NCBI RefSeq assembly: GCF_003334785.1
Contig: NZ_QOWV01000024.1
From: Escherichia coli
GTDB lineage: Bacteria; Pseudomonadota; Gammaproteobacteria; Enterobacterales; Enterobacteriaceae
Strand: one strand, 5' to 3'
Length of the DNA stretch: 42,324 nucleotides
In this document: positions 12,001 to 15,000 of the stretch, piece after piece
Numbering within the stretch: position 1 is the stretch's first letter
How the letters are laid out: each line of letters opens with the position of its first letter
Made by a program: the position numbers

Positions 12001-15000
12001 ATAGTTCACTGGATCAAGGAAGCCGCTTTGTCTGGCGAGCAGTCGGCCCTGATAGTTGGCTTCAATATCAGGCTTCGCATAGCTATCCAACGGTAATACA
12101 GCGATTTCTAACAACGTATCCGTTTTGCCATTGATAACGTTGATAACCTTCCCACCAAAGCGCGCTTGTTGACCAACATATAACCCCGGCTGGTTATGAA
12201 CAGCAACAAAACTTTTTTGAATATCAGGTTGGTTATTGCCTTTGATATTTTGCGGAATTGAACTACATGCGGCAAGCAAAAATGAAAGGCTGAGGATGAG
12301 TGCACCTTTTGTCATGTTCATGTTACTATCCTTATCAACAAATATTAAAACCATAATAGATATTTCTTTATAGTTTTCATCTGATTCTGAGGTGATATGC
12401 CTGATAGTAACGTAAACCTGTCTGATGTTTATATCCTTTCTGTTTAGGTGAACTCAGTTAATTTTGGGGCGTGACATGAATATCCATCACCCCATAATAT
12501 AGTGCATTGTTTTAAAAGTACATAAAATCTATTTTTATTCAATGATTATAAAGTGCTAATAATCAATATTATGGTATTATATTCTGGTAATGATTTGATA
12601 AGCGAATTCTTTTACCAGATGGTATTTCTATTTCCACCCCATAATTTATATCTTTTTCATTAGGCAGTGGCCTCTTTAAATAAGGCGTGTGTGACATTTT
12701 TTTTGGGTTAAGCGTCTCGTATTGAAATACTTCGAATTGATATTCAGACATTTCTGCCCATGTTTGAATTTTATTGTATCGGGAGAGTGTCGTAAAGGCT
12801 TTAACTTGCTTATAACATTGTTTTTGGAATTCTTGCTGATATTTTAATATGTCATTGTATGAAAGATTGGTTATCCTGGCCTCTAAAAATTTAATTATTG
12901 TCGAAGCAATTTCCGCTTTTGCTCGTAAAAGGTTGTCATTAATGGTTAATAATGTTGAAAATAAACCTTCGATTTGTTTGTCAAGATATTGTCCATCTTT
13001 ATATAATTTGGGGGTAGGGTGTTCTTTATGTAAAAAAATAGTGTCACCTAAATTTGCGTCAGTGAAATTTATATTAAGTAGATCTTCGAAATAAAACCTT
13101 GACAAGGTTAGAACGAACCCGGACAGGTTCTGTCCTGTCATATTGAAATCAATAAAGTTGGTTCCGGCAAAGACTTTCATCCTGTTTTTATTTTCACTGT
13201 GCTCAATATATAACTTCGTCATTTTTTGATACAGGCTTTGAATATCTTTTATATTAGTTGGTAAGTCAGCTCGTTGTTCAGCAATAAAATTAGTATCTGA
13301 AAACATGGTTTGGACACTGAATGTTATGGGTATTCCCTCTTCTACGCTAATTTTAGTTATGATTGCCTTGTCGGGTTTAGGATTAGCGATAACAATGATT
13401 CGACATTCAGCACTTTTGTTTTTTTCATATCTAATGTTATTAATCTGATTAAGTATTGATTGTGTCTGTTGCGTAAGTTGTGTCGAACTTATCGTTTCAA
13501 TGTTAGTAATAAGACTTACAAGTTGAGCCACAACTTTTGAGTAGTCTGCATTTGTATATGTAGTGTTCGTGTGGCACGCATTAATTTGTTGAAGTTGGTG
13601 TTGCGCTAAATCATATTGATCAGAGATATATCCTTCTCCAGAGAATGTGGAATTAATGGGTTGTTGTTCTTCCCAATTATCGCAAGGCCACTTCGGTGTG
13701 TCTGGCGTTTTAGCATTATCGGTATTTGTTGTGCAGTTATAAATATCGCCGTGATATGTATTTATTATACCTGGGGTAAAGTCAATTGACATAAAATTCC
13801 TTATTCATCATTTGTTTTATGCTAAGATGTTTAAATTGGATAATTAGAACAGGAATGGATTTTCTTCTACACACAATAAATGTAATGCGTTATATCTTCC
13901 TGATATAATTACCTTTGATTTCCCTTTTATCTCCACCCGGTAATATTTGTGTGTAAAAAAAGGTAGTGATAGTATCGTAAAGGAAATCGTTAACAACTAT
14001 CAAAATGCGCTCATTTTAAAAAGTTATTATGTTCTCTGATAGTGTGTGAAGTGATTTTTTTTTGTGATGTTTTAGATGTGTAATAATAAAATGGGTTAAG
14101 GTATCTTATAATTATTTAATAATTTGTTGTGTAAACCACTGATAAATCATAATCCAGTACGTCTTTAAACTACTGCGCTGTATCGCTGATAACTAAGCAG
14201 CTCACTGATACACCATGCTGGACGCGATAATTGGAATCTCACGCAGGGAGTACTGTGTAAATAGCAAAATCGCCTGATGCGCTACGCCTGTCAGGCCTAC
14301 AAATAACATACTATTCATCGAATTTTCATAACTTTGTAGGTCGGATAAGACGCGCCAGCGTCGCATCCGACATAAATAAAGCGCACTTTTCTAACAACCT
14401 GTGGGGGGGATATCGCCGCTTTATTTCAGGCGCTTACCCGCTTCATCAACCACTTTCTCGCCATCTTCCTTGGAGAATGCGCCTTTTTGCGCATCTGGCA
14501 GAATTTCCAGCACCACTTCTGAAGGGCGGCACAGGCGAGTTCCCAGCGGCGTCACCACAATCGGGCGATTAATCAGAATCGGGTGCTGAAGCATAAAGTC
14601 GATTAACCGATCGTCAGTAAATTTATCTTCCGCAAGGCCCAGCTCCTCATACGGTTCGACGTTTTTACGCAGCAGCGCGCGTACGGAAATCCCCATATCG
14701 GCAATGAGTTTGACCAGTTCATCGCGCGTTGGCGGAGTTTCCAGATAATGGATAATGGTCGGTTCTGTGCCGCTGTTGCGGATCATCTCCAGCGTATTAC
14801 GCGACGTGCCGCAGGCCGGGTTGTGATAAATGGTAATGTTGCTCATATCAGTATCTCATTACAAAGTGAAAGAGAGACGTAGCGCCAGCGCAGCCAGCGT
14901 CACAAACAGCACAGGCAGGGTCATGATAATCCCTGTACGGAAGTAATATCCCCAGCTGATAGTCATATTCTTCTGCGAAAGTACGTGCAGCCAGAGTAGC

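Follow-up and report, generated by a model that had tools for sequence, protein, structure and literature searches.

Pentapeptide-repeat proteins (PRPs; families PF00805, PF13599 and PF13576) are built from tandem five-residue units with L, F or M at the centre, as exemplified by Rfr32 (2F3L/2G0Y), TL15 (3N90) and Np275/276. The DNA-mimic PRPs act as elongated dimers, and mimicry of a DNA duplex takes about 8–10 coils in a dimeric protein that consists almost entirely of repeats. Another class that invites comparison is formed by the ORFans of Escherichia coli, which Daubin and Ochman reportedly described in 2004, and by other xenogeneically silenced genes. These are AT-rich, taxonomically restricted, fast-evolving, bound by H-NS and often pseudogenised. 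The E. coli gene yhiS, which we studied in a stretch of 42,324 nucleotides (nt) of contig NZ_QOWV01000024.1 (assembly GCF_003334785.1; hereafter the window), resembles both classes. It shares the tandem five-residue units of PRPs, but it has only ten of them, inside a protein of 407 amino acids (aa) that is otherwise without relatives. It likewise shares the properties of the ORFans and silenced genes, but it is long for this class and appears to have a recognisable repeat fold.

Our results support the view that residues 206–255 of YhiS are a short, degenerate pentapeptide-repeat segment. As a joint explanation, to which we assign a probability of roughly 60%, yhiS would encode a horizontally acquired, silenced, Escherichia/Shigella-restricted protein with a degenerate PRP module as binding scaffold. 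The gene is laid out in the window as follows:

12569..13792, minus strand: yhiS coding sequence (CDS), an uninterrupted open reading frame (ORF) of 407 codons plus stop
13178..13792, minus strand: N-terminal region, residues 1–205, with a polar N-terminus, a Q-rich helical part and then a beta-rich part
13028..13177, minus strand: pentapeptide-repeat tract, residues 206–255, ten pentads, each centred on F, L or M
12572..13027, minus strand: C-terminal region, residues 256–407, predicted to be mainly helical

Pentapeptide repeats in YhiS

In line with the original prediction, residues 206–255 (exactly nt 13177..13028) form ten consecutive pentads centred on F, L or M. This is the longest run of its kind in YhiS. 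At the combined F+L+M frequency of the protein (0.14), the longest run in 20,000 residue shuffles was 7, and none of the shuffles reached 10. We also scored YhiS with a five-position PRP rule (small residue at i−2, D/N at i−1, L/F/M at i, polar residue at i+1 and G/D/N/S at i+2). The score reached its maximum exactly at residue 206, with 31 matches out of 50, against a maximum of 27 in 3,000 shuffles (0/3,000 reached 31). From i−2 to i+2, the numbers of matches per ten pentads were 4, 6, 10, 4 and 7. Measured against the consensus A(D/N)LXX, the tract agrees at the centre in 10/10 pentads, at i−1 (D/N) in 6/10 and at i−2 (small, A/C/S/T/V) in 4/10. The ten tandem units compare with at least about eight in-register units by which PRPs are recognised. 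No pentads occur elsewhere in YhiS; both the best run and the best rule score are found only at 206–255, and about 88% of the protein is non-PRP sequence. In ten alleles with identities down to 65%, the pentad centres are invariant or differ by F/L, M/V or L/M swaps. The five-residue pattern is real, non-random and conserved.

Comparison with other proteins points in the same direction. The ten best matches of the segment in a phmmer search of the PDB were all PRPs (the designed beta1 series, Rfr32 and TL15; E 1.2e-4 to 0.034). A profile of the tract, based on eight distinct allele sequences, matched Rfr32 (2f3l; E 4.1e-5), and all 10 of its PDB matches were PRPs, counting the luminal PRP domain of SV2A. 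A HMMER search with a ten-allele profile against 1.84 billion representatives of 50% clusters gave 58 matches, namely one full-length E. coli cluster, 42 shorter E. coli pieces or chimeras of yhiS, and 15 long proteins of 212–1,569 aa. These long proteins aligned only at query residues ~200–277, in 2–10 stretches each, with E-values from 2.5e-8 to 9e-4. Eight of the 15 were read as sequence, and all eight are canonical PRPs of the ANLxG type. Two of the 15 were checked by Pfam and contain many significant Pentapeptide domains, which overlap the stretches that match YhiS.

A MAFFT alignment placed YhiS and 35 PRP stretches in one register over all ten pentads, with 24–37% identity. The periodicity does not vanish upon alignment to genuine PRPs, which supports the pentapeptide-repeat reading of the original prediction. 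Apart from family scans that were empty or stayed below threshold, the sequence comparisons point to PRPs only, and their direction is clear. Scans of the full-length protein against NCBIfam, PADLOC and PHROGs gave nothing relevant. Full-length matches to AIPR_N (E 0.42), a nucleoside transporter (E 0.034) and a tape-measure protein (E 0.058) were at chance level and were rejected.

Predicted structure of the repeat tract

The tract quite probably folds as a PRP beta-helix of about 2.5 turns. This is based on an AlphaFold2 model of residues 176–300, for which the alignment contained the alleles together with PRP stretches selected by HMMER, approximately what a standard deep-alignment pipeline would gather. 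The model had a mean predicted local distance difference test (pLDDT) score of 68, with 75–81 over the tract, and showed beta-bridges every five residues and helices on the flanks. It superposes on Rfr32 with 2.0 Å over 59 residues, and about 45 of its best 50 Foldseek matches in the PDB were PRPs. A Foldseek search of AFDB50 showed that the YhiS models in the AlphaFold DB superpose on our segment model (TMq 0.62–0.79). Moreover, a YhiS fragment of 74 aa is named 'Pentapeptide repeat-containing protein' in UniProt.

Several observations weigh against a PRP beta-helix. A Pfam scan of full-length YhiS reported no pentapeptide-repeat match, and the isolated 70-residue segment stayed below the Pfam threshold, with 13.8 bits (i-E 0.062) for its best match, Pentapeptide_4 (PF13599), and 9.0 and 7.5 bits for Pentapeptide (PF00805). 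Six of the ten i−2 positions are atypical, many of them bulky or charged. The HMMER E-values for multiple stretches are favoured by the repetitive nature of the targets. AlphaFold2 with the full-length protein and the ten alleles only gave an unusable model (mean pLDDT 35.8), and without PRP sequences it predicted helices and coil at the tract, with a pLDDT of ~30. The beta-helix model was steered by the PRP rows in its alignment, and in the PDB it had no Foldseek match at E<=0.001.

These observations might be explained if the tract were leucine-rich-repeat-like, mixed alpha/beta or disordered, and its likeness to PRPs compositional. We consider this rather unlikely, given a tract that aligns with PRPs pentad by pentad. 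The PRP beta-helix proposed in the original prediction was recovered in the usable model, with moderate, alignment-dependent support, while the run on the alleles alone failed. Helices after the tract were present in both AlphaFold2 models.

Restricted distribution and base composition

In the profile search of 1.84 billion representatives, residues 1–205 and 256–407 had no relatives beyond E. coli/Shigella. Outside E. coli, this search gave canonical PRPs only, by way of residues ~200–277. Residues 1–205 had no Pfam, NCBIfam, PADLOC or PHROG match. Their N-terminus is polar and, as judged by eye from the sequence, without a hydrophobic stretch resembling a signal peptide; the secondary-structure outline given above for this region comes from the low-confidence AlphaFold2 model only. 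Since the flanking regions have no relatives outside E. coli/Shigella, yhiS counts, as far as sequence can tell, as a taxonomically restricted gene, in the middle of which lies a recognisable repeat module.

When one genome of each GTDB species was scanned with two patterns from the C-terminal part, which B2-type remnants would escape, only a contaminant contig came up. This contig (NZ_SRXN01000179.1, L005) is assigned to 'Ensifer sp. MPMI2T', is 409 bp long with a coverage of 0.77, and matches the 3' end of yhiS with 99% identity. It almost certainly reflects E. coli contamination of that assembly.

The AT-richness of yhiS and its upstream region, which had been pointed out in the original prediction, is readily confirmed. 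The gene has a GC content of 0.338 (0.30 at third codon positions, GC3), compared to 0.471 for the window and 0.51–0.54 for arsCBR and gor. The intergenic regions beside it have GC contents of 0.287 and 0.353, the latter on the upstream side. In a windowed GC calculation, the lowest-GC stretch of 1.8 kb in the whole window begins at 12301.

Previous studies reported the arsC/yhiS and IS5/slp intergenic regions among the H-NS-bound 'promoter islands' (PMC3661553), and yhiS among strong StpA/H-NS sites (bioRxiv 10.64898/2026.02.10.705075). A YdeO site lies near yhiS, yet the gene was not induced by YdeO (PMC4222967). Promoter-like sites between 12300 and 14450 were not enriched (14, versus 10.3 +/- 3.6 in shuffles), and a terminator scan of the same interval found none. 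It is natural to read yhiS as a gene that was acquired horizontally and then silenced. The gene is uninterrupted here, as the original prediction had it, and the potential of this strain to express the full protein of 407 aa has to be weighed against the published binding of H-NS/StpA. We infer that yhiS is silenced in this particular strain.

Allele divergence and selection

The alleles of yhiS differ strongly among E. coli strains. Protein identity ranges from 64 to 100%, nucleotide identity from 78 to 95%, the pairwise synonymous divergence dS from 0.11 to 0.67 and the nonsynonymous divergence dN from 0.05 to 0.22. This differs from the adjacent slp gene (11755–12321), which is 99–100% identical (dS 0.016–0.059, dN 0); the Slp protein was the same in all four RefSeq strains that were checked. 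For instance, between the window and locus L007, identity is 100% for arsC and 99.6% for slp, but 86.4% for yhiS. Sliding windows showed that the divergence is mosaic and limited to ~12470–14120, which covers yhiS and its 5' region, and that identity returns to 99–100% at slp. The yhiS alleles are either old or imported.

The dN/dS ratio of yhiS ranges from 0.27 to 0.58 overall and differs little between the tract and the regions N- and C-terminal to it. Because this ratio is significantly below 1 (Fisher p down to 8e-13), YhiS is under purifying, if relaxed, selection. A run of 407 codons without a stop has a chance of only 6e-14 at the base composition of yhiS. Taken together with the dN/dS values, this implies that yhiS is a real, constrained gene, and we rejected a spurious ORF.

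Gene decay across E. coli

The original prediction also raised the balance between intact and disrupted alleles. Of the 5,417 complete genomes with a match, we examined 60 at even intervals and found the following states:

25/60 genomes: uninterrupted span of exactly 1,224 nt
17/60 genomes: span off by 1–3 nt (1,221–1,226 nt)
11/60 genomes: codons 1–124 only (B2-type remnant)
6/60 genomes: split locus (IS1, K-12-type IS5, or not identified)
1/60 genomes: no real match

Hence, yhiS is of intact length in about 40% (~42%) of the sampled complete genomes, where span length serves as a proxy for intactness instead of ORF calls. All six of the odd-length alleles that were inspected are annotated as frameshifted pseudogenes, and all six are one base short at the homopolymer of codons 252–254, which lies in the last pentad:

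13032..13038, minus strand: poly-T7 run, CDS nt 755–761, codons 252–254, as read in the sequence

The homopolymer is in state T7A (Leu254) in the window and T6C (Ser254) in most intact alleles, and T6A in the widespread frameshift alleles, which run into a stop near codon 282. At least two allele backgrounds carry T6A, so that it either arose more than once or was spread by recombination. In O157:H7, a separate frameshift at codon 363 leads to a protein of 371 aa. In K-12, IS5 is inserted after codon 249, within pentad 9 (equivalent to ~13046 in the window; locus L016). The C-terminal piece of the K-12 gene is also annotated as frameshifted.

It could be argued that YhiS has no function and is an ORFan in decay, derived from a phage or another foreign source, with a tract that is a relic and an ORF that in this strain has not yet been struck. 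The modest share of uninterrupted loci would fit this explanation, and so would the independent inactivations by IS5, IS1, the T7-to-T6 frameshift, the O157 frameshift and the B2 deletion. It would also be consistent with the published H-NS/StpA binding and with the missing response to YdeO. Further, deletion of yhiS and an ASKA clone of the gene left the minimum inhibitory concentration of chlorhexidine unchanged in K-12 (PMC8170033), although this says little on the intact gene because K-12 carries the IS5-split pseudogene. However, each of the three gene regions has a dN/dS significantly below 1, even between alleles with full-length ORFs at 78% nucleotide identity. Such values between divergent full-length alleles indicate that selection kept the protein long in several lineages. 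Therefore, we regard a functionless gene as unlikely.

Possible function of YhiS

In the joint explanation that we favour, yhiS would have been gained horizontally and silenced by nucleoid-associated proteins. Residues 206–255 would be a short degenerate pentapeptide-repeat module between lineage-specific regions, with helices on each side. By analogy with other multidomain PRP proteins, its rigid mini beta-helix may present a surface for the binding of another protein, and a protein-binding scaffold is the likeliest role of YhiS. The protein is presumably cytoplasmic. The gene is dispensable, with weak purifying selection where it is intact, and frameshifted, split by an insertion sequence (IS) or deleted in more than half of the complete genomes. 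As the original prediction acknowledged, no function is established for yhiS, and many other 'y-genes' of E. coli are in the same position.

A more specific role may be considered within this explanation, which it would refine rather than replace. YhiS may be, or may once have been, an effector translocated by one of the type III secretion systems (T3SSs), either that of the locus of enterocyte effacement (LEE) or the decaying ETT2. Its beta-helix would then bind or position a host target, as in PipB2, EspY3, EspX/NleL and SopA. Short PRP tracts are known in EspY3 (PMC6313403), and the structures of SopA and NleL align over the tract and one flanking helix. The polar N-terminus and the high allele diversity of YhiS would also suit an effector. 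Yet, NleL/EspX7, SopA, PipB2 and EspY3 have no sequence similarity to YhiS, and our PDB sequence searches did not return NleL, SopA or PipB2. HECT-like, WEX5F and PipB2 C-terminal domains were found in YhiS neither by Pfam nor by PDB sequence searches, and YhiS had no significant similarity to YjbI, a PRP pseudogene of K-12, in BLASTP. The genomic context is not that of an effector either, as yhiS is located in the acid fitness island beside slp and ars, rather than among effectors or chaperones in a prophage or a pathogenicity island. Moreover, commensal and laboratory lineages, such as BL21, commonly carry intact alleles, and dN/dS is below 1 throughout. An effector role is therefore doubtful.

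The original prediction drew an analogy with DNA-mimic proteins, and this does not hold up well. Qnr, MfpA, AlbG and McbG have the repeat type and the probable local fold of the YhiS tract in common, and YhiS of this type would protect or inhibit gyrase or topoisomerase IV. They are, however, long dimers that are nearly all repeats; the solved mimics are chains of 180–216 residues (target lengths in the structure searches). Because the ten pentads of YhiS give only ~2.5 coils, with none elsewhere in a mostly non-PRP protein, DNA mimicry is highly improbable. PDB searches gave no sequence-level match to Qnr or MfpA. A role in anti-phage defence was rejected for lack of a PADLOC match and of a system context.

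A parallel with YhaC

The Foldseek search of our segment model also returned 'YhaC family protein' models of the AlphaFold DB (E 1.5e-4, TMq 0.60). YhaC of K-12 (b3121; L017 6416–7603) has 395 aa and is encoded by a gene with a GC content of 0.318. Similar to YhiS, it contains a central run of ten L/F/M-centred pentads, at residues ~150–199, and this tract matches PRPs in the PDB (E 3.4e-4). It has no Pfam domain and is restricted to E. coli/Shigella, with alleles that are 64–100% identical. Both proteins have about 400 aa and a central ten-pentad tract followed by helices, and both genes are E. coli-restricted, AT-rich and polymorphic. They differ in locus, which is tdc-yhaBC-rnpB for YhaC and slp-yhiS-ars for YhiS. 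Previous studies listed yhaC among the top positively selected genes of E. coli (PMC9110714) and reported it as a young gene (PMC12218254).

Sequence homology of YhiS and YhaC was not demonstrable by BLASTP (E 0.41) or hhalign (E 0.081, probability 0.7%), and the NCBIfam scan of YhiS gave no relevant match, the YhaC family included. On the basis of the BLASTP E-value and the hhalign probability, we rejected membership of the YhaC family. The likeness is one of shared architecture, not of family membership. More speculatively, and with only a small chance of being right, YhiS and YhaC might represent an as yet unrecognised class of proteins of ~400 aa, restricted to Escherichia and organised around a mini beta-helix of ten pentads, whose deeply divergent mosaic alleles are under balancing or frequency-dependent selection through a variable partner. 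If so, the partner might be a target in the host, with both proteins as cryptic T3SS effectors, or else a component of a phage or a competitor. Recurrent inactivation, including that at the T7/T6 homopolymer, would then be a cost-benefit switch and not simple decay.

The yhiS locus and its surroundings

The locus is part of the E. coli acid fitness island, where yhiS lies between slp and arsC. The gene order in the window matches that of strain CFSAN061761 (gadX-gadW-mdtFE-gadE-hdeDAB-yhiD-dctR-slp-yhiS-arsCBR-dinQ-gor, on to rhsB), in which the product of the same locus is labelled only as 'hypothetical protein' (WP_000020596.1). At least 1,000 public contigs encode exactly the YhiS protein of the window, which has the UniRef name YhiS. 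BL21 has a single unbroken match of 99.9% over 2,021 nt and appears to carry an intact allele. Two further elements precede the gene:

13798..13802, minus strand: Shine-Dalgarno-like AAGGA, 5 nt before the ATG, read from the sequence
13793..14420, minus strand: AT-rich intergenic region upstream of yhiS, GC 0.353, with repeats resembling repetitive extragenic palindromic (REP) elements at the arsC-proximal end

The REP-like palindromic repeats lie just 3' of arsC, at ~14270–14400 in the window. Per genome, the query of 2,021 nt matched a median of two places, compared to one for the CDS alone. In one genome, a 38-nt match (window 14336–14373) was found without the rest of the query. Probably, both the median of two places and this short match are due to the REP-like repeats near arsC.

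The neighbourhood of yhiS differs structurally among strains (loci L002, L003, L004, L006 and L007 were compared). In some strains, an ArsP-like permease and an ArsR/SmtB regulator are inserted between arsC and yhiS. One B2 strain lacks arsR and arsB and has yhiS only as a remnant. The chu haem-uptake cluster adjoins dctR in several lineages, although not in the window.

Rfam detected no RNA family inside or adjoining yhiS. Elsewhere in the window, GadY, ES205, two AgrB and ES036 scored above the gathering score (1308–1421, 7200–7271, 16706–16789, 16937–17020 and 25798–25838), as expected for this region of E. coli. The two AgrB copies are antisense regulators of dinQ. The window also contains an ORF of the YhiJ/YhiL family (30589–31953; 454 aa), likewise AT-rich (GC 0.349). 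In the matching strain record, the YhiJ/YhiL-type gene encodes 535 aa (locus L009, 30626–32233), whereas the corresponding translation of the window meets a stop. This difference in length may mean that the gene is truncated, or that the two sequences differ by coordinates or an indel. BLASTP of YhiS against this DUF4049 (YhiJ/YhiL-type) protein of the window gave no match.

Implications for YhiS and the pentapeptide-repeat family

YhiS is a divergent member, until now under-annotated, of a repeat family that is well known, and not a new kind of system. The gain is a modest one in annotation; no new mechanism is demonstrated. Our literature search found no paper that links yhiS with pentapeptide repeats. 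Studies of K-12 treat the gene as an IS5-split pseudogene, and because it is a pseudogene in this strain it has largely escaped study. The pentapeptide-repeat module provides a first structural handle on YhiS, with domain boundaries on which constructs can be based and core residues as targets for mutation, and strains with an intact allele, such as BL21, are the place to study the protein. The sharply localised hyper-divergence of yhiS, the fact that it was inactivated repeatedly and independently, and the parallel between YhiS and YhaC suggest that selection on this gene is tied to some interaction.

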